DNA of 64,000 nt, taken from positions 3,001 through 67,000 of the forward strand of contig JACDGE010000007.1 of NCBI GenBank assembly GCA_013815465.1, written 5' to 3'. The stretch comes from Alphaproteobacteria bacterium (GTDB lineage: Bacteria > Pseudomonadota > Alphaproteobacteria > UBA9655). A program made the translations under genes and the position numbers. The notes beneath the pieces were generated by a model. The model was not told the origin of the DNA. It worked only from the letters and a program-made list of their open reading frames with translations, and ran no database searches. Shown piece by piece: positions 5,564 to 47,446 of the stretch (positions are counted from its first letter, which is position 1; each line of letters starts with the position of its first letter).

Positions 5564-6475
5564 ATGATGAGAAAAAAACTTTTTGCTTTAATGCTGAGTT
5601 TAGCTATTTTGACAACCAGCCCCCTATTTGCAATGGATGCGCCCGAAGACGAGCGGCCGGGATTAGGAACCGTACCTAAGTGTGTGTTCACAAATCATCT
5701 CATGAAAGAGCTTGCTCTGCCAGATGTAACCTCAGTCTTTCAGGTTTCAAAAGCATTTTACACACTAAGCGTTGACGAAACTGTTTGGGAGTCTGTTGTT
5801 GCAAAACTAGGACTTAGCTTTGATCCCCATGTAAATTTCAGTATACGAAATCAGCTTCGATCTTTTTGCGAGAATTCCGTGAGTAATCTAACTCAAAAAT
5901 GCAGTATGTCGATGGAAACCCTTCAATCCTTTAGGAAAAATCTTATCCCTGGCTCTAATCCTGTTTCATATGATATTAAAATAGGGAACATCCCTCTCTG
6001 CATGACCTATATACAAGCAAATGATATAGGAACGGGTGCCCATGAGGTACACTTAAATATTGACTTTAGTAAAATTGATAATACCCAAAGGGTAATTTTT
6101 TCTAAGGCCCCTGATCAACATCTCTTCAAGAGTAGGTTTATACTATTGACAAAGGATGATGGCATTGGTGGGATAGTAGACCAGCACGGAATTACTCTTT
6201 CGAGCCCTGAATTTATGAAAAGACTAAACGAAGTTAGTACTAAATTTTCTACAACGATGATACAGGCGTGCACTTTTACAATTACACCAGGTCAACGCGT
6301 TAAACCAATTCAGAAAAAGGTAGCAGAAACGAGAGAGGAAGGACTCGCGCGATTACGACCACAAGCGCTGGCTCTTTTTGATGCTGCTCAAAGTATAGAA
6401 TCTATCGCTCAGGCTCTTTTTCTTCCTGAAGAAACAATTATGGAAATGCTAGGGTTAAATTCTGAAAAGAAGTAA
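5564..6475 (+). CDS. Secreted F-box-like motif protein, paralog A
   Basis: Start chosen at ATGATG 5564 with AAGGA upstream; the track ORF extends further upstream. Leader MMRKKLFALMLSLAILTTSPLFA, then MDAPEDE. F-box-like segment LPDVTSVFQVSKAFYTLSVDETVWESV. Confidence 0.6.
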   Translation: MMRKKLFALMLSLAILTTSPLFAMDAPEDERPGLGTVPKCVFTNHLMKELALPDVTSVFQVSKAFYTLSVDETVWESVVAKLGLSFDPHVNFSIRNQLRSFCENSVSNLTQKCSMSMETLQSFRKNLIPGSNPVSYDIKIGNIPLCMTYIQANDIGTGAHEVHLNIDFSKIDNTQRVIFSKAPDQHLFKSRFILLTKDDGIGGIVDQHGITLSSPEFMKRLNEVSTKFSTTMIQACTFTITPGQRVKPIQKKVAETREEGLARLRPQALALFDAAQSIESIAQALFLPEETIMEMLGLNSEKK

Positions 6476-6853: not shown

Positions 6854-8137
6854 CTACCTAAAGGCGATTAAATCCCCATTGTCCGTCAAAATATAGAGTG
6901 TTTCTTGTGCCACAAAAGGAGCTAATGAGACGGGCGCCCCCACCTCGGTTGTTGAAAGAATTGTTCCATTCGTAGGGTCAAGAGCGACCAGGGCTCCGCT
7001 CGCCTTGACGATATAAAGCTTGTTATTGGCGACGAGTGGTCCATCCCAAATCACTTTATAGGGATGTTCGATATCAGATTCCAACTTCTTTATCCACACA
7101 ACTTGACCATAGTCCCGCGTAAGGCACATGATTTCATTCTGGGAGTTAACCATGAATATAAAGTCGCCGATCACAGCGGGGGTGCGTAATCCCCCAATAC
7201 TTCTCTCCCAAAGCTTTTCCCCGCGTCTTAAATCATAAGCCGCCATTTTTTGATTATAACCGATAATAATCACCGTGTTTTGGTCAATTACAGGGAGAGC
7301 TTTGATGTGTGAAAGAGAGGAAAGGGAATCAGGGCGCTTGGTCGCGCTGAGGGTTTCAGTCCACAGCTGGTGCCCATTTTCTGCTTTAAGAGCATAAATT
7401 TCGCCGGAAGAATAGGTCACAATCACAACCCCCTTAGACACAGCGGGAGAAGCTGTTCCTAGAAGGCCAGCAAATTCCGTGATGCCGGCGTGATCCCATA
7501 GACGTTTTCCGGTTGCCGCATCAAGAACTTCTAGTTGATTGCTGATGGTTAAAACATAAAGCCGCCCATCGGAATATGTAGGGGCTGCGCGAACAGGGCT
7601 TTGGGTTGGAACCCGCCAAAGAATTTTCCCTGATTTTGCATCGAGAGCAAGAACTTCTGCATGGGGTGATGTTACAAAAACTTTTTCTTCTCCAAAAGCA
7701 AGGCCTCCTCCGATAATTGATCCCCCTCGTTCTTCAGGTGAAATGTCGGCTTTCCAGAGAGTTTTGCCGGATGATGCAGACAAGGACCTAACATGCCCCT
7801 CTGTATCAAGGGCATAGATAATTGCTTCCTTAACGATAGGAGAAGACAAAAGTCTCCCATCCCCATTTCCGGCTCCTATAGAGGCCGTCCACTGAGGAGT
7901 GATTGTTTCTTGAAGAGAGAAGTGGGGCATGACGTGTCCTGCGCTGCCCCCCTGCTGCGGCCAATCTCTCCCAAGTTCTGAAAGAGGAAGCATGACGCTC
8001 TTATCTTTCGTATCGAGGTCGACCTTAACGGAGCTTTCATAAGTTACCACAGGAATACGTGTTCCCGTAATGGGAATTTTTGGTGTATCACAGGCCCCCA
8101 AGGCGAGAAGAGGAAAAAGTCCTATAAACTTCCTCAT
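6854..8137 (-). CDS. bamB: Outer membrane protein assembly factor BamB (PQQ-like beta-propeller lipoprotein)
   Basis: Start chosen at MRKFIGLFPLLALGAC (lipobox LALGAC), which overlaps the upstream stop as ATGA. Repeated G-K-xLW / beta-propeller blades (GKTLWKAD, GKILWRVP, GKRLWDHA, GHQLWTET, GEKLWERS). Confidence 0.8.
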   Translation of the reverse strand: MRKFIGLFPLLALGACDTPKIPITGTRIPVVTYESSVKVDLDTKDKSVMLPLSELGRDWPQQGGSAGHVMPHFSLQETITPQWTASIGAGNGDGRLLSSPIVKEAIIYALDTEGHVRSLSASSGKTLWKADISPEERGGSIIGGGLAFGEEKVFVTSPHAEVLALDAKSGKILWRVPTQSPVRAAPTYSDGRLYVLTISNQLEVLDAATGKRLWDHAGITEFAGLLGTASPAVSKGVVIVTYSSGEIYALKAENGHQLWTETLSATKRPDSLSSLSHIKALPVIDQNTVIIIGYNQKMAAYDLRRGEKLWERSIGGLRTPAVIGDFIFMVNSQNEIMCLTRDYGQVVWIKKLESDIEHPYKVIWDGPLVANNKLYIVKASGALVALDPTNGTILSTTEVGAPVSLAPFVAQETLYILTDNGDLIAFR

Positions 8138-8793
8138 TGTTGAACCCCGGTACTGTTTGCTTCTTCCCATAGTAAGGGGGGGATATCAATTTGAGATAGC
8201 ATCATTCCTGCCCGTAATGTTTCATCAGGTGTGAGGGAGGTCTCCTTTAAAATCCTAATATAGAGCTTGGCTGCGCTTACGGAATCTCCTCTTTTTAAAT
8301 CGGCTAAAGCCAGCAATTCGAGAGAGAGAGGCGCCCAAGCATTATTAGGAGCTGTTAAAGGTTCTAGAGGTGTCAAAACTTCGGGCTTATCAAGAGCACG
8401 AGCGGCCATTAAGATCTTTGGTAATTTACCCAATGCAGGATCGGCAACATTTTCTTGAGAAATTTTTGTGTATAGAGCTTCTGGGTCAGGTAGAAGAGAC
8501 GCTTCATAAAGCTGTGCAATCTTACCGTATCCCCCCCCTTCTACCGCCAAGTCATGAAAGGCTTTGAGAGCTTCCTCTTTTTTTCCTAGCTTAATAAGCT
8601 CAACGGCTTGAAAGAAAGAAACATGCTTCCTAACTTGGGCTTTATTTTTCAGATATTGCCAAAGCACGTAAGCGGATGTTGCAATCACAATGGCTACTGC
8701 TAGCCCAATTATATAGTTTCCATACTTATGCCAAAAATTAAGGATTCGTTCTTCACGAATATCTTCTTCCAGCTCTTTAAAAAAATCAGACAT
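8134..8793 (-). CDS. YfgM-like membrane-anchored TPR protein
   Basis: 219 aa with one TM helix near the N-terminus (NYIIGLAVAIVIATSAYVLW) followed by a helical repeat region. The conserved position directly upstream of bamB matches the E. coli order yfgM-bamB. Confidence 0.55.
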   Translation of the reverse strand: MSDFFKELEEDIREERILNFWHKYGNYIIGLAVAIVIATSAYVLWQYLKNKAQVRKHVSFFQAVELIKLGKKEEALKAFHDLAVEGGGYGKIAQLYEASLLPDPEALYTKISQENVADPALGKLPKILMAARALDKPEVLTPLEPLTAPNNAWAPLSLELLALADLKRGDSVSAAKLYIRILKETSLTPDETLRAGMMLSQIDIPPLLWEEANSTGVQQ

Positions 8794-8988
8794 GATTCAG
8801 GCTCCATTTTTCTAGACCACCATAATTTAAGATGCACCGTTGGTAAAGGTTAATTCAACATGCCCCAAACGGGTGCGGCATATTTGCATAAAAAATTTAC
8901 AGGGATGCTCCACAAAAATAAACCATAGAAAATTCCTTCCAGGAAATGTATGTTAAGAAAAAGAGAAGGCGAGGAGCATAACATACCC

Positions 8989-9303
8989 ATGGACATCATT
9001 CTTATCCCCCTACTTGCTGTCATGAGAGCAGTCCTTGGCATTTATTCTTGGATTGTCATTGTAAGTGTTATCATGAGTTGGCTTATTAACTTTAATGTTA
9101 TTAATTCACATAATAACTTTGTGCTCATGCTCATTGAATTTCTTTACAGGATGACTGAGCCTGTTCTCATGAAAATTCGCCGCGTCGTTCCTATTATCAG
9201 TGGGTTTGATCTATCGCCCATTATTTTGATTATAATATTATGGTTTTTACAAGCTGTTATTGCCCGACTCATGATGAGAGTTTTAGTGGGGGGTAGTGTC
9301 TAA
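8989..9303 (+). CDS. yggT: YggT family membrane protein
   Basis: VIMSWL...LYRMTEPVLMKIRRVVPIISGFDLSPIIL matches the YggT signature. Start set at the internal MDIILIPLL; the upstream extension of the track ORF is uncertain. Confidence 0.7.
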   Translation: MDIILIPLLAVMRAVLGIYSWIVIVSVIMSWLINFNVINSHNNFVLMLIEFLYRMTEPVLMKIRRVVPIISGFDLSPIILIIILWFLQAVIARLMMRVLVGGSV

Positions 9304-10165
9304 AATTATCGATGGCCGTATAGTTGCGGCAGAAAAAAAAGAACAACTCTCTGCGTTAGCCAAGACTCTTGAAGAAAAGACAGGGATTAAACCAGGCCTT
9401 GCTGTTTTGAGAGTGGGAGACGATCCCGCAAGTCAACTCTATGTTAACATGAAGGGAATTCACTCTAGAGAGCTAGGCTATCATTTTGAAGAGCATGTTT
9501 TTCCAGCGTGGACTCCGTCAGAAGTGTTGGAGCAGAGAATCAAAGAACTTAACGAAGCGAATCATGTCCATGGGATCATCCTTCAGCTTCCTCTGCCTCT
9601 TGGTTTAGATAAGTTTTATTTTCTCTCTCTTATTGATCCCGCTAAAGATGTCGATGGTTTACATCCCCTCAATGCGGGAAAATTTTTTCAAGGAATAGGG
9701 GGAGGATTTGTTCCTTGTACGCCTCTCGGGTGTCTTGAGCTCATCAAAACTGTTCACAATGACTTGGAAGGGCTGAATGCATGCGTTGTTGGACGTTCTC
9801 TCCTTGTCGGACTACCCATGGCGGCTTTGTTGCTGCAGCAAAATTGTACTCTATCGATTGCTCATTCGAAAACCCAAAACTTGCCGGCTCTCTGTAAGGC
9901 GGCGAATATCCTTGTTGTTGCCATTGGAAGTCCTCGTTTTATCCCAGGAGAATGGATTCAAAAGGGAGCAACAGTAATTGATGTCGGAATCAATCGGCTT
10001 CCTACAGGGGAGCTTGCGGGAGATGTTGATTTTGCGAGTGCTCGATTAAGAGCGGGGGCTATTACACCCGTTCCCGGTGGGGTAGGTCCCATGACGGTTG
10101 TTTCCCTTCTCCGCAACACCTTAGAGGCAGCTTTTCATTATGCAGGCGAACCTTTCCCTCTTTAA
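9296..10165 (+). CDS. folD: Bifunctional methylenetetrahydrofolate dehydrogenase/methenyl-THF cyclohydrolase
   Basis: 289 aa with a GTG start. LAVLRVGDDPASQLYVNMK, DVDGLHPLNAGK, VVGRSLLVGLPMAALL and PVPGGVGPMTV are classic FolD blocks. Confidence 0.92.
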   Translation: MSKIIDGRIVAAEKKEQLSALAKTLEEKTGIKPGLAVLRVGDDPASQLYVNMKGIHSRELGYHFEEHVFPAWTPSEVLEQRIKELNEANHVHGIILQLPLPLGLDKFYFLSLIDPAKDVDGLHPLNAGKFFQGIGGGFVPCTPLGCLELIKTVHNDLEGLNACVVGRSLLVGLPMAALLLQQNCTLSIAHSKTQNLPALCKAANILVVAIGSPRFIPGEWIQKGATVIDVGINRLPTGELAGDVDFASARLRAGAITPVPGGVGPMTVVSLLRNTLEAAFHYAGEPFPL

Positions 10166-28495: not shown

Positions 28496-29686
28496 ATGGC
28501 AAAAGAAAAGTTTGAGCGGAAGAAGCCGCATTGTAACATTGGAACGATTGGTCATGTGGACCATGGGAAGACGACCTTAACGGCGGCGATAACAAAAGTG
28601 TTATCGTTGACGGGTGGCGCGGTGTTTACAGGTTATGACATGATTGACAAGGCGCCGGAAGAAAGAGCGCGGGGGATCACCATCTCGACAGCCCACGTTG
28701 AGTATGAAACGCCCGATCGTCACTATGCGCACGTTGATTGTCCCGGACACGCGGACTACGTGAAGAACATGATCACGGGTGCAGCTCAAATGGATGGTGC
28801 GATTCTGGTTGTGAATGCGGCCGATGGTCCGATGCCTCAGACTCGCGAACACATTTTGCTTGCGCGCCAAGTTGGTGTTCCCGCTCTTGTTGTCTTTATG
28901 AACAAAGTGGATCAGGTTGATGATCCTGAGCTGATAGAATTGGTTGAGATGGAAATTCGTGAATTGCTGACTTCTTATGGTTTTCCAGGGGATGATATTC
29001 CGATTGTGAAAGGATCCGCCTTGTGTGCCTTAGAAGGCCGTGAGGATCCCATTGGAAAAGATGCGATTATGGAGTTGATGACGGCTGTTGATACGTATAT
29101 TCCCCAGCCCGAGAGAGCGCTGGACAAACCCTTTTTGATGCCGATTGAAGACGTGTTTTCTATCTCTGGCCGTGGTACGGTTGTGACGGGGCGTGTTGAG
29201 AACGGAATTGTCAAAGTTGGAGAAGAAGTAGAAATTATTGGTTTGAAGGCGACGGTGAAGACGACAGTGACGGGCGTTGAAATGTTCCGTAAGCTGTTGG
29301 ATCAAGGTCAAGCGGGCGATAACGTTGGTGCGCTTCTTCGAGGAACCAAGAGAGAAGACGTGGAGCGTGGGCAAGTTTTGGCAAAGCCAGGAAGTATCAC
29401 GCCGCACACGAACTTCAATTGTGAAGCTTATATTTTGAAGAAAGAAGAAGGTGGTCGTCATACGCCCTTTTTTGGGAACTATCGTCCTCAGTTTTACTTC
29501 CGTACGACGGATGTGACAGGGACGGTGAAGTTACCGGATGGGGTAGAGATGGTGATGCCTGGAGACAATGTAACGATGGAAGTTGAGCTGATTGCTCCAA
29601 TTGCCATGGATGAAGGTCTTCGTTTTGCGATCCGCGAGGGTGGCCGTACAGTTGGTGCGGGCGTCGTCGCTTCCATCAAGAAGTAA
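28496..29686 (+). CDS. tuf: Elongation factor Tu (copy 1, tufB-type context)
   Basis: 396 aa. [22 protein letters not shown]. The protein is identical to the copy at 51232-52422. Confidence 0.98.
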
Positions 29687-29760: not shown

Positions 29761-29837
29761 AGGAGTGTAGCTCAACTGGCTAGAGTACCGGTCTCCAAAA
29801 CCGGGGGTTGTGGGTTCGAGTCCCACCACTCCTGCCA
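29761..29837 (+). tRNA. tRNA-Trp (CCA), CCA end encoded
   Basis: Acceptor AGGAGTG/CACTCCT, anticodon arm CCGGT-CTCCAAA-ACCGG, T arm GTGGG-TTCGAGT-CCCAC. Confidence 0.9.
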
Positions 29838-30363
29838 AGGTTTACCTTGGTTTGTCTAACGTCACTTTTCCTTCGGGGACCTGCTTAGGTCGTTAAGACG
29901 CAACAATATAGCGTAATACGTGATGCGCAACAATAAACTCTTACCCCAAATTACCAGGCCTTCCTCCCGAAAATTTCTTCAAAGTGTCCCGCTATTATCC
30001 TCCGGATATAAGCGCTCCTCGTATTAAAGTGTGATTTTAAAATTCTTAAAGAGGGATGCGATAAAAAGTAATAACCAGGAGGCAGGGGGGACGCAAGAAC
30101 TGCCTATTGCATTTTTATCCGACCCCGGTTTGAGTACGAATATGTCAGTATTGTCCGTTTCTCCTCAATGGTTTTTGGGAAGACTATTTTGCGGTTGCAT
30201 GTTTCACGTATTAGGCTTGAAAAGTGAAACACTCACTTCTTTTGTGAAATACGCGTGAAATATGGGTCCAAAAAAAGTGTTTCCTGATGGAACACTCCAC
30301 CGGCTCTCCTCCACACCATTTTTAGGGATTCCTCATGCGCCTTAGAGAAAACCGTGACGTTGC

Positions 30364-31497
30364 TTAAGAGCTTACCGCAGAATTCAAACGATAAAATCTA
30401 ATATAATTCCCATATCGGGTATCTACATAAAAAAGAGGATGTTTATAAACCGGCTCATTGCCCCACTTGGATTCAACAAAACCGAGGGAATCATAAACAC
30501 CATAATGTGCGGGCCACCCTAACTGCTTATAATAACAAACAAGGTCTCCTTTTTTGGGCTCTCTTGTTGCTGTAAAATACTCCTCAATCCTTTCGTTATT
30601 CGGGCATTCTACTCCTTGAAGATTCGGATAGTGGTCCTTGTAGTCGGAGGTCTTAAAGATTGCACCAAATGCATACATATAACACTTTCCAAAGAATTTA
30701 ATATAGTTCATACGCTGTATTTCAGCAGGATATTTAGATTCAGGATGGTCACAGTTATCTAACTCTTCTCTAATTCGCTTATTTTCTTCCGATGCATCAA
30801 ATTCTACGTATAAATCATCGCGCATCGTGAAAGTAAAAATATCTTCTTTTACTGTGTCTATGGTATATGGCTGCGGTTTAAGACGATAAAACTGGGCCAA
30901 ATCTCCATAATAATCAGGAGAGAAAAAGACATCATGTTGATAAACAAAGGGATTGTTCCATCCCCATTTAGACTCTACCCTTCCTCCAAGCTTAGCCTCT
31001 CTATAAATCCCCGTATGAGGAACATACTGTGCTTTTGGGTAGACTGCCAGGTCCCCCTCTTCTGGCCGTGTTGTGCAGTCAAAATAGTGATTGACGATAT
31101 AGCCTATTCCGTAAGCCTTCGCTTGATAGAGGATTGCATGAAAGGGAACTCCAGAACTTTGTTCTAATGGTTCCCTTAATGTCTTTAGGGTATACTCATA
31201 AGCATGGAGGGCTGACTCCTTATCTTCTAATTCTTTGAGTTCAAGGAAAAAACCCCCGCCTTCTTTGATTTCTTCTGTATAAGTCATTTTTTGCCATGAG
31301 GTTGCTCTGTTAGAGTTAGGCTTCCCGGCTATAAACGACCTTGAATAGGTTTCTACCCCATCCTTTTCATTACTTTTTTGAAGACTTGGGGTTCCCGCCA
31401 CCGGCCCTAAATTCTCAGGCTCAACGCTCATGGCCTGGCAAAAATGAGAATTAAGGAAAGAAAAACTAAAAATAAAGATAGTTAAACAATTAATCAT
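30364..31497 (-). CDS. Secreted protein with two tandem papain-like (NlpC/P60-type motif order) repeats
   Basis: 377 aa. Leader MINCLTIFIFSFSFLNSHFCQA, then MSVEPE. There is an internal duplication: ...EEGDLAVYPK..PHTGIYREAKLGGRVESKWGWNNPFVYQHDVFF..YYGDLAQFYRLK versus GKCYMYAFG...KKGDLVCYYK..AHYGVYDSLGFVESKWGNEPVYKHPLFY..RYGNYIRFYRLN. Confidence 0.5.
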   Translation of the reverse strand: MINCLTIFIFSFSFLNSHFCQAMSVEPENLGPVAGTPSLQKSNEKDGVETYSRSFIAGKPNSNRATSWQKMTYTEEIKEGGGFFLELKELEDKESALHAYEYTLKTLREPLEQSSGVPFHAILYQAKAYGIGYIVNHYFDCTTRPEEGDLAVYPKAQYVPHTGIYREAKLGGRVESKWGWNNPFVYQHDVFFSPDYYGDLAQFYRLKPQPYTIDTVKEDIFTFTMRDDLYVEFDASEENKRIREELDNCDHPESKYPAEIQRMNYIKFFGKCYMYAFGAIFKTSDYKDHYPNLQGVECPNNERIEEYFTATREPKKGDLVCYYKQLGWPAHYGVYDSLGFVESKWGNEPVYKHPLFYVDTRYGNYIRFYRLNSAVSS

Positions 31498-31887
31498 TTA
31501 TGTCGTTTTATCGTAAACAGTGTTGTGTACATAAATATTAATTAGTAATTAAAGTAAATATTTAAAGGGGCGAGCCTATTAATTGTACATTTTTAGACCT
31601 TCAGCCCCTCGCCTTCAGCCGGTCAATCGAAGTTTTTCTAATAATCTGTGGATGTTTTTTGGGTTGTGTAAAGGTTCTCTTGCGTAAAATACAGCGGCTG
31701 CTTCTCATTATTATTATTAATAATTAACCAAAAACATTGCTGGACACGCTCATTATAATTTACTTCTTTATTATATATTTGCCAGCTCACTACCCCATGA
31801 TTTTTTTGAGGTAGGAAAGAAGGGCTCGAAAAGTTTCATAAAATTCTAGATCTTTAGTTTGACAAAAAACAAAAAGAAAGAAAAACT

Positions 31888-32100
31888 ATGGATCTCGCGG
31901 CCCTTCTCGAAAGATATCAAACCCTATTACCCTGAAATTTGGCAAGAACAAAATGCTTTGTGAGCATGATTTTAGGAATGATTGCCTCAGGATCAGTCCA
32001 ACAACACAAGACCGCCCTTGGATTTACAGGAACTGCCAAACAAAAATCTGTTTGTACCCGAATCTCTAATTTCTTAAAAACATTCGACTTCATCTATTAA
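31888..32100 (+). pseudogene. IS4-family-like transposase N-terminal remnant (in-frame TGA at 31933-31935)
   Basis: MDLAALLERYQTLLP*NLARTKCFVSMILGMIASGSVQQHKTALGFTGTAKQKSVCTRISNFLKTF resembles the N-terminal W-N-x-A-R...V-x-L...A-x-x-F-x-G-x-A-K-x-x-S...R-x-x-x-F pattern of IS4-type transposases. The inverted copy reads TGG (Trp) at the stop position. Confidence 0.5.
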
Positions 32101-32152
32101 TCATGTTATACGTGGATTAAATTATGTTGTATTTAATAAATTAAATTTTACG

Positions 32153-32593
32153 ATGATGAAAAATTTCTTATTATGCATTTGCTTAAGTTTAACTATAAGC
32201 ACCGCCAAAGCGATGGAGGAGGAACATAGTCCTCTCTCACCGACCTATAGACCCGTTTTCAGACAAGGCTTTTCGATGCAAGACCTTGGACGATGCGCGC
32301 AAGTAAGCCGTCAGTGGAATGAGCATTCAGCCGATAATTTTTTTTGGGATCCAATCGCCCAAGATTATGGAAACTTTCATGGGTTTCCAACCACATTGGA
32401 TTTCAGTAGGATACCTAAGAAATGGAAAGACATGATGCACCGCACGCTAACTCATAGGATAGCTCCACACAGTCTAGTCACTCCCACCTTAACGTATAAA
32501 AGGGTAGAAAATTTTAAGAAGCGTCAAGAAATTGATCCAAAGTTCAAACCGACTGCTTTGGACATAATCTCTAATAGTAGAATTGTGTTGTAA
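32153..32593 (+). CDS. Secreted F-box-like motif protein, paralog D (short)
   Basis: 146 aa. Leader MMKNFLLCICLSLTISTAKA, then MEEEHS. It has the clearest F-box-like segment: FSMQDLGRCAQVSRQWNEHSADNFFWDPI. Confidence 0.6.
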   Translation: MMKNFLLCICLSLTISTAKAMEEEHSPLSPTYRPVFRQGFSMQDLGRCAQVSRQWNEHSADNFFWDPIAQDYGNFHGFPTTLDFSRIPKKWKDMMHRTLTHRIAPHSLVTPTLTYKRVENFKKRQEIDPKFKPTALDIISNSRIVL

Positions 32594-33005
32594 CTTACGT
32601 CCGCATTGGCATCAAAACATAAAGAGCTGATGTATCCGCCCCGTCTTTCGCAATAATGGCTTGGGTTTCATCCCCAATGAGCAGCTGTAATGAAGGGCTG
32701 GAAATTTGCTGTGTCACGTCAAGAAACATTTTATTCTTGCCAAATTCCAGGGTAATAGGGTGCGATATCTTTCGAGAAGGGCCGCGAGATCCATAGTATT
32801 TCTTTCTTTTTGTTTATTGCTAAACTAAAGATCTAAAATTTTATAAATCTTTTCAATCCCTTCTTTCCTGCCTCAAAAAATCATGGGGTAGTGAGATTTG
32901 CCAGTATAGAGACCCTCTGCTTATTATAGAGGGCATTATCGCTCGATTACATACGAATAATTTTGCGGACACTTAAAAGAGGTCAGAGTTTCCTTAGATA
33001 TTCCT

Positions 33006-33641
33006 TTACATTTTTTCTTTTGCTTTATCCTGATTATCAAGATCTATTGGTTTTGCATTTTTAGCATTTTGAAATTTTTCAATGTCTTCTTTAGGAGTAA
33101 GATCTTTGTGGGGAGGGATATCGTTATAAATGTGACTAAAAAACACTAATCCATCCACGAGCCTTGCAAAATGCTTATACGTCGTTGGGATCCCGGTAAG
33201 AGGATTATGATTGGTAACTTTTTGTGTTGTTAAAGCCCCTTCAGGATTTTTTTCAACTTCTTCTAACAGTTCTTGGTTTACAAACTTACCATCCGGATTT
33301 TGCCAAGACAATGCATTATGTCCTACTAGCCCGGGATACTTACAAGAAGCTAAAATAACTCCATCTTCTGTCATAACATTAACTCCCATAGAGCCAAATT
33401 CATAGTTCTTGCAAAAAGGATTATTAGAATCACTAAATAATTTAATAGATTCTTTAAGCCCATTTTTTTGATAAAAACAAACAGCATTATTAACAAGTTC
33501 TATGGTTTTTTGTTGTTTTATAGCACTTGAATCTGTGGATTCAGAAAAATGGTCATATTTTCCAGTTTTACAATCTGCATAAAGGTTAGATGTCAGCAAG
33601 GCTGAAATCAGCATAATAGCTTTATAATGAATTATTTTCAT
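33006..33641 (-). CDS. Secreted single-Cache (sCache_2-like) domain protein
   Basis: 211 aa with a signal peptide. The core AVCFYQKNGLKESIKLFSDSNNPF...GVNVMTEDGVILAS.KYPGLVGHNALSWQNPDGKFVNQELLEEV follows the standalone Cache domain pattern (helix, then a strand with 'G.vla...P.lvG.n......D.dG'). Confidence 0.55.
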   Translation of the reverse strand: MKIIHYKAIMLISALLTSNLYADCKTGKYDHFSESTDSSAIKQQKTIELVNNAVCFYQKNGLKESIKLFSDSNNPFCKNYEFGSMGVNVMTEDGVILASCKYPGLVGHNALSWQNPDGKFVNQELLEEVEKNPEGALTTQKVTNHNPLTGIPTTYKHFARLVDGLVFFSHIYNDIPPHKDLTPKEDIEKFQNAKNAKPIDLDNQDKAKEKM

Positions 33642-33929
33642 AATTTGTTCTCCATTTTATAATAGCCTACTCATATTTGATTAAAAATTAGTTACCTTTT
33701 TTATTGTACAAAATTTTTTGATGGAGGCGATAATGGCATGAGGCTTTGGTGGTGGCCCAGATTTCACCCATTAAGATCCTTGGCACAGGTAGTTGAACAC
33801 TCTCCGGTTCAATACATGGGACTGCAAAGATTATAAGCCCAATTTTAGTCTTCTTCACATAGATTGTATCTCTGTCTTTAATCGCGGAAAAATTGTAGAG
33901 AATGCTACTCAACAGGAACTTCTCCAGAG

Positions 33930-34254
33930 CTAGCATTTACACACCTTTCCGGAATATCCGGGTGGGAGGCCCCTTGTCGGAGAGGAAGGATGAGCAATTT
34001 TGAGGCTCTTGAGGATCGTTCTTCCACAAGTCTTATCTCTTTTCTGAGACGAAATTATACACTCTTGTCCCAAAACACACATCCGGTCAAAGTACCCCCG
34101 ATGAATTTTGGAGATTCGTAAACTCCACCTAACCCCTTGAAACTTTGGTGCCGGAGAAGTGAGTCGAACTCGAGGTAATAAACGTACCTGTAAGGGCTTT
34201 TCTTTTTGCCGCTGGCTTATGCCCCTCTTCTTGCGTGATGACAAAAGCTGACAT
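33930..34254 (-). pseudogene. Possible remnant of a P4-type (DUF4102-type N-terminus) integrase gene, frameshifted
   Basis: Minus-strand fragments ..GHKPAAKRKAL..SGTKVSRG and ..VLGQECIISSQKRDKTCGRTILKSLKIAHPS loosely follow the integrase N-terminal pattern AKP..K.YKL...G.K.WR.KYR...LG.YP..SL..AR..R.....L..GIDPS. The similarity is weak. Confidence 0.25.
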
Positions 34255-34446
34255 AAAACATATTAAAAGCACATATCTTTCTAGACTAAAGAGCCTGAGC
34301 CATGGGACGCTCCTCGGATATTTGGCGACAAAAAACAGTAACAAATCTGTACAAACAACAACAAAGAATCAGAGGCAAGCAATTGATTTGATTGACATCA
34401 TTTGTTAACGTTTGTTGTCAGTTAAACACTTTAACTGTCGTCAAAG

Positions 34447-34482
34447 GGAGGGGCGCGGGTTCGAGCCCTGCCCCTCCTGCCA
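34447..34482 (+). other. Orphan tRNA-Trp-like 3' fragment (T arm, acceptor 3' strand and CCA); candidate att remnant
   Basis: GGAGGGGCGCGGGTTCGAGCCCTGCCCCTCCTGCCA parallels the 3' part of tRNA-Trp (GGGGGTTGTGGGTTCGAGTCCCACCACTCCTGCCA). No matching 5' acceptor strand (AGGAGGG) lies at the required distance upstream. Confidence 0.6.
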
Positions 34483-34545
34483 AAAACATTTGTAATTTAG
34501 ATTAAACCCTGCTAAGAAAGGGTGGAGTTAACCCGGAAAAGGACT

Positions 34546-34743
34546 ATGGCAAAGATATCTCCCCTTGAATTTATGCGCCAAGTGCGTCAAGAAGTGTCGA
34601 AGGTCACGTGGCCAACACGCAAAGAAACAATTATAACGTCTATTATGGTGTTTCTGATGGTGTTCATCTGCGCCGTGTTTTTTTTAATTGTGGATCGCCT
34701 CCTCGCGTGGGGAGTCTCTTTCATTTTAGGAATGGGAGCTTAG
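34546..34743 (+). CDS. secE: Preprotein translocase subunit SecE
   Basis: Start chosen at MAKISPLEFMRQVRQEVSKVTWPTRKE (conserved SecE N-terminus) with a single TM. It precedes nusG. Confidence 0.88.
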   Translation: MAKISPLEFMRQVRQEVSKVTWPTRKETIITSIMVFLMVFICAVFFLIVDRLLAWGVSFILGMGA

Positions 34744-34748
34744 GACAA

Positions 34749-35288
34749 ATGTTGCCACAAAATTTTCATTGGTACGTTGTGAATGTTTATTCAGGATACG
34801 AAAAAAAAGTTGTTGAATATATTCAAGAGCAGGCCTCAAAAAAAGGTTTTTCTCATCAGATCGAAACAATTTTTGTTCCTACCGAAGAGGTTGTTGAAGT
34901 AAAAAAGGGTGCAAAGGTTACATCTGAGCGTCAATTTTTTCCCGGCTATGTGTTGATAAAAATGCAATTAACCGATGAACTCTGGCACTTGATTCGACAT
35001 ACCCCAAAGGTTTCTGGCTTTTTAGGAGCTAAAGGAAAGCCCACTCCTGTTAACCAAGTTGAGGTTGATCGAATCTTGGTGCAGGTTGCAGAAGGTGTTC
35101 AAAAGCCCAAATCAACAGTTACTTTTGAAGTGGGTGAACAAGTGCGTGTTTCAGAAGGGCCCTTTACATCGTTTAATGGGCTTGTGGAAGAAGTGGATGA
35201 AGAAAAACAGCGCGTTAAGGTGGCTGTTTCCATCTTTGGTCGGTCAACGCCCATTGATTTGGATTTTGTTCAGGTGGAAAAAATTTAA
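34749..35288 (+). CDS. nusG: Transcription termination/antitermination factor NusG
   Basis: Start at ATG 34749 (MLPQNFHWYVVNVYSGYEKKV). NGN domain plus the KOW motif (FEVGEQVRVSEGPFTSFNGLVEEVD). Confidence 0.93.
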   Translation: MLPQNFHWYVVNVYSGYEKKVVEYIQEQASKKGFSHQIETIFVPTEEVVEVKKGAKVTSERQFFPGYVLIKMQLTDELWHLIRHTPKVSGFLGAKGKPTPVNQVEVDRILVQVAEGVQKPKSTVTFEVGEQVRVSEGPFTSFNGLVEEVDEEKQRVKVAVSIFGRSTPIDLDFVQVEKI

Positions 35289-38042: not shown

Positions 38043-41000
38043 ATGGCGAGAACTTATACGGAGCGCAAAAAGATTCGGAAAAGCTTTGCACGGATACCTG
38101 AAATAGCTCCTTTGCCCAATCTGATCGAGCTACAAACCACATCCTATAGTAATTTCCTGCAAATGGATGTGCCGGCAGAAAATAGAGTTTCAATGGGTTT
38201 GCAAGAAGTTTTCAAATCTGTTTTTCCAATTAGTGATTTTTCTGGAAAGTCTCAACTTGAGTTCTATCGGTATGACTTCGATGGACCGAAATATGATGTA
38301 GACGAATGTAAACAAAGGGGTGTGACCTTTTCAGCACCTTTAAGAGTGACCTTTCGATTAATTGTATGGGACATTGATGAAGAAACGGGCGCGAAATCCG
38401 TGCATGATATCAAAGAACAAGAAGTTTACATGGGTGATATTCCCCTCATGACTGAAAATGGAACCTTTGTTGTCAATGGAATTGAGCGTGTTGTGGTGTC
38501 TCAAATGCATCGTTCGCCTGGGGTCTTTTTTGACCATGACAGTGGAAAATCCCATTCGTCGGGGAAGTATCTTTTTTCAGCGCGCGTAATTCCTTATCGG
38601 GGATCTTGGTTAGATTTTGAGTTCGACGCAAAAGATATCGTTTTTGCGCGTATAGATCGAAAAAGAAAGCTTCTCATCTCTACCTTTCTCATGGCTATGG
38701 ATAGCGCTGAGACAGAAGAAAAGCGCAAAATTGCTGCCGAAAAGGGAGAAAAGCTCGACCCTATTGACGCTCAAGGCATGTCTCGTGAAGAAATTTTGAA
38801 TGTCTTTTATGGCACGGTTGAATACCAAAAATGTGGAGAACATTGGAAAACAGCTTTCAGGCCGGAATTGGTTAAACCTGGGAAGCTGGCCCATGATTTA
38901 ATTGATGCGGCTACGGGGAAAGTCGTGGCAGCCGAAGGTGCTAAGGTCAATATGCGTTTTGCGCGTAAACTTCAGACAGAAGGTCTTAATGAAATTCTTG
39001 TTTATGAAAATGATGTGCTCGGTTGTTATGTTGCAAGTGATTTAATTAATGAAAGCACCGGTGAAGTTTATGCTGAAGCAGGTGATGAAATAACGCCTGC
39101 GTTTCTAGAAGTCATTGCAAAGGCGGACGTGCAAAGTATTCCTACTTTGGACATCGACCACGTTAACGTGGGAGCTTATTTGCGAAATACTTTAATGGCA
39201 GATAAAAATTTGACGCGTGAAGATGCACTTGTCGATATCTATAGAATCTTACGTCCCGGGGAGCCTCCAACGATCGAGGGAGCCGAAGCTCTATTTCACG
39301 GACTTTTCTTTGACACAGAGCGCTATGACTTGTCATCTGTTGGTCGCGTGAAAATGAACTCACGCCTTGGATTAGACGTGCCCGATACGATGCGTGTTCT
39401 TAACAAGCAAGATGTTCTCGCTATTATTAAAGTGCTGCTTAATTTGAAAGATGGCAGAGGCGTAATTGATGATATTGATAACCTAGGCAATAGACGTGTG
39501 CGTTCTGTAGGCGAACTTTTAGAAAACCAATACCGTGTTGGTCTTTCCCGTATGGAACGGGCAATACGAGAAAGAATGAGCTCTGTTGAAATCGAGATGG
39601 TTATGCCTCACGATTTGATAAATGCGAAGCCTGCTGCGGCAGTTGTGAGAGAGTTCTTCGGTACGTCTCAGTTGTCTCAGTTTATGGATCAAACCAATCC
39701 TCTTTCAGAGATCAATCATAAACGTCGTTTGTCGGCTTTAGGCCCAGGCGGTTTGACACGTGATCGTGCAACCTTTGAAGTCCGAGATGTGCATCCCACC
39801 CATTATGGGCGTATTTGTCCTATTGAAACCCCGGAAGGTCCAAACATTGGGCTTATCAACTCTTTGGCAACCTATGCCCGCGTGAATAAGTACGGATTCA
39901 TCGAAACTCCCTATCGTAAAGTTATTGATGGAAAAGTAACAAGCGAAATTACCTATCTTACGGCTATGGATGAAAGCAAACATACGATTGCCCAGGCAAA
40001 TGCTGAATTAGATAAGAATAATCAGTTTACGGCAGACTTTGTTAACTGTCGACAAAATGGCGACTTTGTCGTGGCGCCTGCAGCTGAAATCGATCTCATG
40101 GATGTTTCTCCAAAGCAAATTGTATCCGTTGCAGCTTCATTGATTCCCTTTATCGAAAATGATGATGCAAACCGTGCTTTGATGGGGTCCAACATGCAAC
40201 GCCAAGCCGTCCCTCTATTGCGTTCGGAAGCGCCGTTCGTTGGAACGGGAATGGAAGGGCCTGTGGCTCGTGACTCAGGCGTTGCCATTATTGCAAAGAG
40301 AACAGGCATTGTAGATCAAGTTGATGCCTCTCGTATTGTGATTCGCGTTACGGACGTGAGTGCAATGACCACAAGCAATGTCGATATCTATAATCTCTTG
40401 AAGTTTCAACGATCTAATGACAAAACCTGCGTCAACCAGAAGCCTCTTGTAAAAGTTGGGGATAAAATTGAAAAGGGTGATATCATTGCCGATGGGCCTT
40501 GTATGAATATGGGGGAACTTGCTCTTGGTTCCAATGCGCTTGTCGCATTCGTTTCTTGGAATGGGTACAATTTTGAAGACTCTATTATTATTTCAGAACG
40601 CATTGTTAAAAATGATATTTTTACGTCAATCCACATTGAAGAATTTGAACTTTCAGCACGAGATACCAAGCTAGGTAATGAGGAAATTACGCGCGATATC
40701 CCGAATGTCGGTGACGAAGCCTTGCGTCATTTGGATGAGGCAGGGATCGTTTATATCGGTGCCGATGTGAAGCCTGGAGATATCCTCGTTGGTAAAGTTA
40801 CGCCCAAAGGGGAAGCTCCTTCTACGCCCGAAGAAAAGCTCTTGCGGGCCATTTTTGGAGAGAAAGCATCAGATGTGCGAGACACGTCTTTAAGGCTTCC
40901 TCCTGGAGTCCAAGGAACGATTGTTGAAGTTCGTGTTTTCTCTCGCCGAGGCGTGGAAAAGGATGAGCGTTCTTTAGCCATTGAACGCGCAGAAATCGAA

Positions 41001-42215
41001 AGACTTGCGAAAGATCGTGATGCAGAAAGGTCAATTTTAGATAGAAACTTTTATGCATCTCTAGAGGAATTGCTGCTCAAGCAAAAAATTGTGAGTGCCC
41101 CCGCAGGTGTAAAGAAGGGAACAACGGTTACAAAGAGCGTGCTTGATTCTTTGTCTAAAGGCCAGTGGCGTCAAATTGTTGTGGAAGACGATGCTATAAT
41201 GTCAGCTCTAGAGTCGGCAAAGCAGAATCATGATAATCGAACGACTGTTCTTCAGACCCGTTTTGAAGATAAGGTTGATAAGTTAAGACGTGGTGATGAG
41301 CTGCCCACAGGTGTTTTAAAGCAAGTCAAAGTTTTTGTTGCGGTGAAACGCAAACTTCAACCAGGAGATAAAATGGCAGGACGCCATGGGAACAAGGGAG
41401 TCGTTTCTCGTATTGTTCCTATAGAAGATATGCCTCATCTGGAAGACGGAACACCCGTAGATATCGTTTTGAATCCTTTGGGCCTCCCTTCCCGTATGAA
41501 TGTGGGTCAAATCCTTGAAACCCACTTAGGTTGGGCTGCAGCAGGATTGGGGCGCCAAATTAATGATGCGCTTGCCAAAATGGCTCTCGAAGAGCACAAA
41601 GATACGACCCATTTACGGACCGCTCTTGATTACGTCTATGAAGATGATCAGATCATAAAAGATATTAAGGGCTTATCTGATGATGAGGTTGTCGAACTTG
41701 CAACGAACTTGACGGGTGCCATTCCCATGGCAACTTCGGTCTTTGATGGAGCTCATGAGGCTGATATCAATCACCAGCTTAAAAAAGCCAACCTTGATAC
41801 CAGTGGACAAGTGACATTGATTGATGGGAGGTCCGGCGAGCCGTTTGATCGGAAGGTAACTGTGGGATATATGTATATGCTTAAACTTCACCACTTGGTG
41901 GATGATAAGATTCATGCTCGATCCGTTGGACCCTACAGTCTTGTTACCCAGCAGCCCCTGGGAGGAAAGGCTCAGTTTGGTGGACAACGGTTTGGAGAAA
42001 TGGAAGTATGGGCTCTCGAAGCTTATGGAGCCTCCTATACTCTCCAAGAAATGTTGACAGTTAAATCGGATGACGTTTCCGGACGAACAAAGGTTTATGA
42101 ATCGATTGTGCGTGGAGATGATAACTTTGAGTCTGGTATCCCTGAATCTTTTAACGTTTTGATTAAGGAATTGCGTTCCTTAGGATTGAACGTGGAATTG
42201 GGTGTAAATGAATAG
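38043..42215 (+). CDS. rpoB: DNA-directed RNA polymerase subunit beta
   Basis: 1390 aa with conserved blocks throughout, for example [18 protein letters not shown] and [10 protein letters not shown]. Confidence 0.99.
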
Positions 42216-42259
42216 AAATAAAAAGATAATAAAACTTTTTAACTTATTATTTCTGAAAG

Positions 42260-43213
42260 GTGGATATTAACGTGAGTGATATAACTCTTAAATATTATTT
42301 AGTTGCTTCAGCGATGGCTTTTGCAAGTATTAATCCAGCGTTAAGAGCAATGATTCAAGATGAACTAGAGGTTGATAAAAAAACTATCGTGAGTGAAAAT
42401 TTCAGAGACCGTAACGGTAAGAAATCTGGAGTTTTGATCTTACATTGCGTAGGGCTTGATGATGCTTGGGTTTCTAAAAATTATGGTTTAAACAATACCA
42501 ACGGGGGGCTCGGGGTAAGTGCACACTACTATGTCTCTCAAGAAAGCAAAAAAGTCTACCAGCTCGTGTCTGAAGAATTGAGTGCTTTTCATGCGGGTCC
42601 AAGTGAATGGCGTTCTTTGGCAAAGGAAAATAACCTTCAAGGATTAAATGATATATCTATAGGCATTGAGTTTCAATCTCCCGGATATGCCCAAATTAAG
42701 AGGGAAGCATATTATCCTTATAGCTTCGCGTCCTATAGTGAAGAACAAATAAACTCTGGCATCCTATTGAGCAAACAAATAATCAAAAAACACAATATTA
42801 CTCCAGAAAATGTTGTCTGGCATTCAGATGTGTCCCCTTTGCGTAAAACTGATCCGGGAGCTTTATTTGATGGGAGAAGATTTGCGCAAAATGGTATAGG
42901 TGTTTGGCCTTCTGCAGATCGTCTAGAAGATAATCAATTAGAAACATCGTTATCTACTATTCAAGCGGGTTTAAAGAGTTGGGGTTATCCTCATGTTGAA
43001 ACAACGGATGTTTTTGATAATGCAACTAAGTATGTTTTAACAGCCCATTATATGCATTATTTACCTCAAGAAGTGCAGTGGGAAGACTTCAAAAATCAAG
43101 CGTCAGGCTCGATTTTTGATACTGTACAAGAGTGGAGTGATTTCCCCTACCAAAAGGATGTTCTTGCTATTTCTTTGGAAAATTTGAATAGGAAAAATTT
43201 TGAAAAATTTTAA
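42260..43213 (+). CDS. Periplasmic N-acetylmuramoyl-L-alanine amidase (amidase_2, AmpD/AmiD/PGRP fold) with a PG-binding-like C-terminal region
   Basis: Hydrophobic leader (YYLVASAMAFASINPA). LILHCVG (Zn His), SAHYYV, SAFHAGPSEW, LNDISIGIEFQ, VVWHSDVSPLRKTDPG (Zn His/Asp). C-terminal IQAGLKSWGYP...DNATKYVLTAHYMHYLP. There is no ATG near the start; candidates are GTG 42260 or, better spaced from AAAGGTGG, GTG 42272. Confidence 0.8.
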   Translation: MDINVSDITLKYYLVASAMAFASINPALRAMIQDELEVDKKTIVSENFRDRNGKKSGVLILHCVGLDDAWVSKNYGLNNTNGGLGVSAHYYVSQESKKVYQLVSEELSAFHAGPSEWRSLAKENNLQGLNDISIGIEFQSPGYAQIKREAYYPYSFASYSEEQINSGILLSKQIIKKHNITPENVVWHSDVSPLRKTDPGALFDGRRFAQNGIGVWPSADRLEDNQLETSLSTIQAGLKSWGYPHVETTDVFDNATKYVLTAHYMHYLPQEVQWEDFKNQASGSIFDTVQEWSDFPYQKDVLAISLENLNRKNFEKF

Positions 43214-43252
43214 ATTTAAGCGTAATAACGATAACGAAGCATTAGGAATTAG

Positions 43253-47446
<4,194 letters not shown>

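Follow-up and report, generated by a model that had tools for sequence, protein, structure and literature searches.

The window analysed here is a stretch of 64,000 nucleotides from an alphaproteobacterial genome assembly (contig JACDGE010000007.1), in which the genes for tRNA-Tyr and tRNA-Gly and the tuf gene are followed by an intact tRNA-Trp(CCA) gene at 29761-29837 on the plus strand (found by ARAGORN and by the Rfam tRNA model, 68.1 bits), and in which secE begins with its ATG at 34546 and nusG begins at 34749. Between tRNA-Trp and secE lies a genomic island of ~4.6 kb (29838-34482), which is the subject of this work. A preliminary description of this DNA had placed the end of tRNA-Trp at 29837 and the start of secE at 34546 and had noticed long non-coding stretches between them. 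Both coordinates agree with the ARAGORN, Rfam and gene predictions, and ~52% of the island was measured to be non-coding, the coding share of ~48% being made up of only three intact open reading frames (ORFs). A profile of base composition, which had been proposed as a check, gave a GC content of 38.8% for 29838-34482, compared with 44.3% for the rest of the window, and no other 4.6-kb stretch of the window was as low.

The right end of the island is formed by a displaced 3' part of tRNA-Trp (34437-34482, plus strand), recognised by similarity, by pattern and by alignment, which comprises a decayed anticodon loop, the variable region, the T arm, the 3' acceptor strand, G73 and CCA. Positions 34443-34483 (41 nt) match the tRNA-Trp 3' end with 76% identity, in direct orientation. 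The sequence blocks that had been reported as common to this fragment and tRNA-Trp were confirmed with a two-block pattern of 18 bases, GGGTTCGAG-N8-CTCCTGCCA, which occurs at exactly two sites in the 64 kb (29812-29837 and 34457-34482) and in 0 of 100 shuffled sequences. As had also been reported, there is no tRNA 5' half near the fragment according to ARAGORN and Rfam. The fragment had been drawn as 36 nt (34447-34482), and although it is a real copy of the tRNA-Trp 3' end, this extent was too short: alignment with relatives identified GTCGTCAAAG at its start as a decayed form of GTCTCCAAAA (2 nt of anticodon stem plus the loop), and the fragment was redrawn as 46 nt, beginning at 34437, 2 nt ahead of the old anticodon loop. 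In the intact gene the anticodon loop is at 29793-29799, and the segment that is repeated at the far end begins at 29791. After the CCA of the fragment, the window continues with AAAACATTTGTAATTT, which matches the sequence after the intact tRNA-Trp of a relative, L007 (loci are cited by number here and below), where AAACATTTGTAATTT stands directly after the tRNA CCA; because this same block follows the CCA of the fragment, the fragment stands where the tRNA 3' end lay ancestrally. The host flank that follows (34483-34743, plus strand) consists of a block, ATTTGTAATTT...CTG(C/T)TA, and of secE itself (34546-34743, with a SecE match in Pfam). The block is kept in relatives with and without inserts (the contig of L009 starts ~30 nt before secE and the block is unreadable there) and is probably the promoter or leader of secE. 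The fragment, however, is missing upstream of secE in L002, L005, L006 and L008, and therefore it is not a conserved secE leader, a possibility that the preliminary description had raised against its own interpretation.

The state of the junction in other bacteria was surveyed with a NusG-based scan of GTDB genomes, which gave 80 loci. In 69 of these 80 loci, all alphaproteobacterial, the distance from tRNA-Trp to nusG downstream of it is 208-490 nt (median 323 nt), in agreement with the earlier statement that tuf, tRNA-Trp and secE are normally contiguous. Seven exceptions had at least 1 kb of readable sequence upstream, five of them among the nine closest relatives of the window, which are uncultured alphaproteobacterial metagenome-assembled genomes (MAGs) with NusG identities of 78-84%. 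The junction is contiguous and uninterrupted in L007, and in L005 and L006 it contains spacers of only 100-200 nt; inserts of 2.4 kb and 9.6 kb are found at the junction in L002 and L008, respectively, and in L001, L003 and L004 tRNA-Trp is not found within 10 kb upstream. The inserts of L001-L004 and L008 are mutually unrelated in content: that of L001 carries genes for a photolyase, an MFS transporter, a LysR regulator and a deformylase, that of L002 a pentapeptide-repeat protein, that of L003 large effector-like proteins, that of L004 mercury-resistance and metabolic genes, and that of L008 primase, ATPase and NB-ARC-TPR genes. A further 10 kb upstream in L004 contained metabolic genes only and no tRNA-Trp, so either this insert is longer than 20 kb or the region is rearranged. 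Relatives that shared the 4.6-kb content with conserved genes would have spoken against an island, and the relatives' inserts differ.

The DNA that directly follows the intact tRNA-Trp (29838-29897, plus strand), beginning with AGGTTTACCTTGG, is read as the left end of an element, similar to a short P' arm, on the basis of blastn against L001 and of a shared repeat. Window positions 29791-29870 match L001 positions 5973-6046 with 79% identity over 81 nt by blastn, and the match extends 33 nt beyond the tRNA; these 33 nt (AGGTTTACCTTGG...) are homologous to the sequence after the inner tRNA-Trp half of L001. Because the left end of the window matches the sequence after that inner half, L001 holds two tandem units, and its half nearest secE is more decayed than the inner one. 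A decayed repeat, GGGACC-N5-AGGTCG, lies in the left arm at 29876-29892, 38 nt past the CCA. With regard to the intact tRNA-Trp itself, the second pair of its T stem (29812-29830) is U-A, compared with G-U in 5/5 relatives that have an intact tRNA-Trp (L002 and L005-L008) and C-G in the displaced fragment. This difference is compatible with the element having supplied the 3' half of the present tRNA-Trp, and does not prove it.

The opposite end is marked by a feature that was found in this work, a conserved non-coding module of ~150-190 nt (34260-34436, plus strand) that abuts the displaced fragment, is recognised by blastn, profile and alignment comparisons, and is read as a long, P-like arm. 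It contains GGGACG-N5-CGGATA at 34294-34310, which is a decayed form of GGGACA-N5-GGGACA, TTGGCGACAAAAAACAGTAAC at 34322-34342, and GTTAAC...CAGTTAAAC immediately before the core. By blastn, the segment 34260-34482 aligns with L003 7520-7741 at 78.6% identity (224 nt), and L004 and L001 match as well. With the copies found by scanning genomes and metagenomes for a 21-mer pattern (TTGGNGACAAAAAACAGTAAC), nine copies, that of the window included, are known from at least seven genomes. The module stands beside a tRNA-Trp 3' half in the window, L003, L004, L001 (twice) and L197/L205, beside a tRNA-Ser(GCU) 3' half in L167 (another contig of the same MAG as L003), and beside a tRNA-Ser(CGA) 3' half in L164 and L202. 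In 9/9 copies the anticodon loop is preceded by 2 nt of tRNA-derived sequence, and there is no intact tRNA at any of the module junctions. A profile made from the nine copies matches the window at 34286-34437 with an E value of 1e-37 and finds these copies alone in 3.08 Mb of fetched DNA; the module occurs once in the window, and beyond the tRNA part nothing in Rfam, phages, plasmids or viral contigs matches it. A group I intron or a split tRNA was considered as the source of this arrangement and rejected, since no 5' half lies upstream of any module and no intron match was obtained.

The repeat GGGACA-N5-GGGACA is located ~140 nt upstream of the core in the modules, and within the 3.08 Mb of fetched loci it is confined to the modules and a left end. 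It is also found past the tRNA CCA, by 37 nt in L207 and by 26 nt in L220, and a decayed form lies 38-40 nt past the CCA in the window and in L001. The repeat is a putative arm-type integrase binding site. The two ends are thus laid out like an attP site, with a tRNA-derived core between a long and a short arm.

Two observations on these flanks should be added. In L003 the module and the tRNA half are followed, at 7742-9740, by a flank like the native one downstream of tRNA-Trp in L005, and then by a secreted S8-peptidase-like gene before secE (7883-9622), which makes this a second insertion, separate from the first and located between the flank of the tRNA and secE. L006 and L167 have similar GC-rich sequences (TCCGCCGCCGCGC..GCGC..GGCGTGA), which come after the tRNA-Trp CCA in L006 (351-400) and after the CCA of the tRNA-Ser half in L167 (7764-7810). 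The two loci may share a terminator here, or the sequence may be a small repeat element that follows tRNA genes.

We consider it probable (roughly 0.8) that the island is a decayed, integrase-less relic of an integrative element that targeted tRNA genes at an anticodon-centred attachment site, comparable to a cis-mobilizable element (CIME), and the ancestral element was probably mobilizable. Site-specific recombination would have put this element into tRNA-Trp, in the region of the anticodon loop. Because it would have brought along its own tRNA copy, from the anticodon loop to CCA, integration would have restored a working tRNA-Trp gene on the left, where 29761-29837 would include the core of attL, and displaced the original 3' part of ~46 nt to the right end beside secE, where 34437-34482 would represent the core of attR together with the old 3' end. 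The attachment region would survive as the short arm after the tRNA and the long arm of ~150-190 nt before the fragment. Genes for recombination, replication and transfer would then have been lost, leaving between the arms three effector-like secreted genes, long non-coding DNA and an inverted-repeat element that arrived later. Since the core has diverged (GTCTCCAAAA compared with GTCGTCAAAG), the island is probably fixed and unable to excise. The preliminary description had likewise proposed an old island integrated at a tRNA gene, and the insertion, the intact tRNA and the displaced 3' copy all stand; the decayed integrase that it placed beside the fragment is not supported.

Several observations weigh against this interpretation. 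No integrase, excisionase or recombinase signal was detected in the island, either in its ORFs with Pfam and NCBIfam or in six-frame translations of both flanks, and no related copy that was read contains an intact integrase. A 26-aa ORF in L207, which may resemble an integrase N-terminus, gave nothing with Pfam and NCBIfam and is unconfirmed. The similarity of the left arm is short and modest, ~60 nt at 65-70%. The module is as conserved as neighbouring coding DNA, which could reflect a function as an origin of transfer (oriT) or a promoter. Finally, mobility was not observed: neither an excised form nor an empty site within the same species was found.

The whereabouts of the integrase were examined at both ends of the island. 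Next to the fragment, broken ORFs had been thought to resemble the N-terminus of a P4-type integrase. The region 33642-34259 is non-coding DNA with short overlapping ORFs in which no homology was found and for which Rfam returned noise only. A six-frame Pfam search of 33642-34446 at E<=10 gave nothing in any frame; the small ORFs near the fragment had no Pfam match and nothing relevant in NCBIfam; and tblastx of the island against the relatives gave no match beside the fragment outside the non-coding right-end module. A P4-type (DUF4102) integrase pseudogene at 33650-34300 was therefore rejected, as there is no match to Arm-DNA-bind_3 or Phage_integrase in any frame, and what had been taken for a decayed integrase consists of the conserved non-coding end at 34260-34436 and of DNA that carries no protein signal. 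Integrase remnants, where they are present in related copies, lie at the tRNA-proximal end (L207, L220). In the window the corresponding place would be the non-coding stretch 29898-30363, which has no recognisable remnant and is not repeated elsewhere in the window; the six-frame Pfam search of 29838-30363 at E<=10 gave no match and Rfam gave noise only. Because the tRNA-proximal end (29838-30363) is traceless as well, the integrase looks deleted rather than decayed in place. Primase and relaxase signals are likewise absent from the island ORFs and from the six-frame translations of 29838-30363 and 33642-34446. A single relative, L220, suggests that the lost integrase may have been of the P4/DUF4102 type.

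L220 provides a complete unit on a 600-kb contig, in which an intact tRNA-Ser(CGA) is followed by the left repeat, 9.7 kb of cargo, the right repeat and a tRNA-Ser half. A stub of 68 aa corresponding to the N-terminus of a P4-type integrase (PF13356) is encoded 140 nt past this tRNA-Ser half and belongs to the next unit, and the 26-aa ORF of L207 lies at the equivalent place. Units in tandem are also seen in L001 and L197/L205. Genes of mobile elements are found around these copies and their homologues: L205 has a DUF3987 primase-helicase, an AbiE toxin-antitoxin system and a MazE-like gene; L207 and L216 have DUF3987, a MobA/TraI relaxase and NB-ARC-TPR; HipAB toxin-antitoxin pairs occur in related elements too; and L212, a locus reached through a DUF3987 homologue and in which no module was seen, has an AlpA-like helix-turn-helix (HTH) gene, Toprim-DUF3987 and Tra genes. 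LuxR/GerE-NB-ARC-TPR proteins of ~1150 aa are encoded both in L008 (6010-9474), a tRNA-Trp island that lacks the module, and in L207 (8294-11641), a DUF3987/relaxase element, which hints at cargo shared between island types.

These copies bear on a different explanation, in which the module and the tRNA half are the recombination sites of integrase-less cassettes that were captured and stacked at tRNA-Trp and tRNA-Ser by a recombinase encoded elsewhere in the genome, forming an integron-like or trans-mobilised platform for effectors. This is unlikely, although of the alternatives it survives best. It would account for the tandem stacking of units (L001, L197/L205, L220), for the diverse and often effector-like cargo (F-box, Sel1, patatin-LRR, lipase), for the strong conservation of the module across genomes and tRNA targets, and for the fact that no readable left end has an intact integrase: those of the window, L001 element B, L197/L205 and L220 element 1 have none, and L207 and L220 have stubs only (26 and 68 aa). 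However, the stubs in L207 and L220, together with the primase, relaxase and AlpA genes, point to decayed autonomous ancestors, decay combined with tandem accretion is a documented route to such arrays (PMC5704250), and no recombinase acting in trans was identified. Moreover, integrases may simply be off the contigs, as assemblies often break upstream of DUF3987. A scan of GTDB genomes with the left-end pattern returned L001 and chance matches only, scanning genomes and metagenomes for the module turned up further right ends and no integrase, and walking from amine oxidase and DUF3987 neighbours led mostly to contig ends just upstream of DUF3987. Independent assemblies (L205, L207, L208, L212, L215 and L216) repeatedly break off no more than a few hundred bases ahead of DUF3987, which suggests that the integrase or regulatory end is multi-copy in these genomes and collapses in assembly; such contig ends limit the conclusions that can be drawn from missing integrases.

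It is even less probable that the module and the tRNA-like hairpin are maintained for a function selected in the host, such as a small RNA, a promoter, leader or terminator, or an oriT, their likeness to an attachment site being secondary. Such a function would explain why the module is 78.6% identical to that of L003, compared with ~75% for adjacent coding DNA, why the minihelix of the fragment is unusually stable (-26.6 kcal/mol, z -3.5 against shuffled sequences), and why pairing in the T stem was kept through a double change from G-U to C-G. The hairpin is indeed strong: positions 34447-34479 form a near-perfect minihelix of 13 bp, compared with -17.9 kcal/mol and z -0.5 for the consensus tRNA-Trp half, which folds less well. 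RNAalifold, however, finds no conserved structure in the module beyond the T arm and one 5-bp helix (-6.5 kcal/mol), and Rfam gives no match. L002, L005, L006, L007 and L008 have no such unit upstream of secE, and it adjoins unrelated genes at the tRNA-Ser sites; because it is absent before secE in these relatives and present at tRNA-Ser sites, it is not a secE element.

The assembly was also inspected at the two junctions. Unitig depth is 14.2 over both the island and secE, unitigs cross from tuf and tRNA-Trp into the left part of the island and from the right part of the island into secE, and the arrangement recurs in a second public assembly. Unitigs of uniform depth that span both junctions indicate that the arrangement is not an assembly artefact, and the island is a single-copy chromosomal insert. 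Only one public run, a soil metagenome (DNA), contains the island sequence, and the same search found no RNA run that contains it. An origin of the tRNA piece in local duplication, rearrangement or misassembly, with the intervening genes brought by unrelated events, hardly deserves credence. In its favour, the fragment is degenerate (76%), assemblies break near the duplicated tuf (depth 25.6 compared with 14.2), and the inserts found at this junction in L002 and L008 lack a tRNA repeat. Against it, unitigs span both junctions, the two assemblies agree, and random duplication fails to explain the same breakpoint and the same module at three tRNA genes in several genomes. As for tuf (28496-29686), its unitig depth is 25.6, compared with 14.2 around it, and at 29685 an alternative path branches off; the approximately doubled depth indicates two near-identical tuf copies in the genome, and it is because of this duplication that contigs of relatives often break inside tuf.

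The genes between the arms of the island are few. A secreted protein of 377 aa is encoded on the minus strand at 30364-31497; two DUF7689 stretches are recognised in it by Pfam, and its matches to the papain-like CHAP and NlpC-P60 domains are weak. An internal repeat (residues 135-199 and 304-364, 42% identity, E 2e-9) is in accordance with the tandem papain-like protein of the preliminary description. A large protein database contains only 11 homologues, with at most 46% identity, one of them from a Chlamydiales MAG, and the three homologue places that were looked up (for two proteins) were all in other genomic contexts. Such rare homologues in unrelated contexts fit patchily distributed cargo. 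The second gene, on the minus strand at 33006-33641, encodes a protein of 211 aa with a signal-peptide-like N-terminus. It had been called a secreted Cache protein, and while the ORF and the N-terminus bear this out, the similarity to a single-Cache domain is weak, as the sCache_2 match (E 1.6e-4, 22.1 bits) is below the Pfam cut-off of 25.

The third gene lies inside a transposable element that, with its flanking duplications, extends over 31777-32904. The element proper is 1110 bp (31786-32895), is bounded by inverted repeats of 173 nt with 90.8% identity (31786-31958 and 32724-32895), and is flanked by a perfect 9-bp target-site duplication, ATTTGCCAG, at 31777-31785 and 32896-32904, as read from the sequence. 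It has no transposase and is therefore non-autonomous. These features support the earlier proposal that the island was later colonised by a transposable element, and the element would have inserted after the island had formed. The ORF it contains (32153-32593, plus strand, 146 aa) is F-box-like, with a Pfam match of 29.6 bits. The preliminary description had labelled it 'paralog D', a label that was dropped because tblastn found no paralogue in the window; more generally, the window contains no paralogues of the island proteins or of the inverted-repeat arms, and the 64 kb include no second copy or parent insertion sequence (IS) of the element. Assembly unitigs break at the inverted-repeat arms, where the depth is doubled. 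The depth of the interior (31976-32711) is 17.7, compared with 14.2 for the flanking island, which is ambiguous and may indicate a further copy or variant elsewhere in the community. The element shares terminal inverted repeats, the 9-bp duplication, a passenger gene and the lack of a transposase with mobile insertion cassettes and MITE-like IS derivatives (MITE, miniature inverted-repeat transposable element), and it differs from these in the great length of its inverted repeats (173 nt).

Outside the island, a further observation concerns the rpoB-rpoC junction, which is normally tight. In the window, an ORF of 317 aa (42260-43213) lies between rpoB (38043-42215) and rpoC (43262-47446). The gene called there encodes 313 aa and has an Amidase_2 match, similar to N-acetylmuramoyl-L-alanine amidases, and the 2-kb bin 42001-44000 is low in GC (39.3%).

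It has been reported that a regenerated tRNA gene (tDNA) and a displaced fragment mark the ends of islands and that anticodon-centred attP sites are common (PMC4383910). The island resembles the tRNA and tmRNA islands of the Islander type (Williams 2002, as cited in PMC4383910), which are formed by tyrosine integrases with anticodon-centred attP sites, in having an intact, regenerated tRNA, a displaced 3' tDNA in the same orientation, a repeat starting at the anticodon stem-loop, a foreign composition, an uninterrupted site in relatives, ends shared with independent copies, and relatives in tandem arrays. It differs from these in that no integrase gene lies within it, although Islander requires one (ORFs and six-frame translations of both flanks were searched at E<=10), in its degenerate core repeat, in its size of only 4.6 kb, and in that about half of it is non-coding. 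CIMEs have been described as decayed integrative and conjugative or integrative mobilizable elements that keep attL and attR and are cis-mobilizable (PMC5704250). Like these, the island has kept both arms and the core repeat and has lost the genes for integration and transfer, and its relatives have accreted elements at the same tRNA; in contrast to these, its core has diverged, which makes present mobilisation doubtful, and a helper element encoding a matching integrase was not found. The hosts differ too, as CIMEs have been defined mainly in Firmicutes. There is also a likeness to P4-like satellites and integrative mobilizable elements, with which related copies share DUF3987, MobA/TraI and toxin-antitoxin genes, an AlpA-like HTH in L212 only, and in L220 the PF13356 integrase stub directly past a tRNA half, whereas none of the DUF3987, MobA/TraI, AlpA, toxin-antitoxin and integrase genes is present in the window. 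P4-type integrases are reportedly tied to the T-loop or the 3' end of tRNA genes in most cases and not to the anticodon loop.

The island is of an ordinary kind among bacterial genomic islands, and this case leaves the understanding of tRNA-gene islands unchanged. What is new is a signature, based on the module, by which islands at tRNA-Trp and at two tRNA-Ser genes in a little-known clade are connected: the module of ~150 nt, the repeat GGGACA-N5-GGGACA and the tRNA 3' half mark the ends of one element family at three tRNA genes, and with its help islands can be delimited in metagenome bins that are fragmented and have no surviving integrase. The hosts are uncultured, probably protist-associated soil alphaproteobacteria, and the one named homologue comes from Candidatus Paracaedibacteraceae. 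In this lineage the tuf-tRNA-Trp-secE-nusG junction, which is otherwise highly conserved, became a hotspot for foreign DNA, and the genes delivered there, encoding papain-like, F-box-like and Cache-like proteins, resemble effectors of host interaction.

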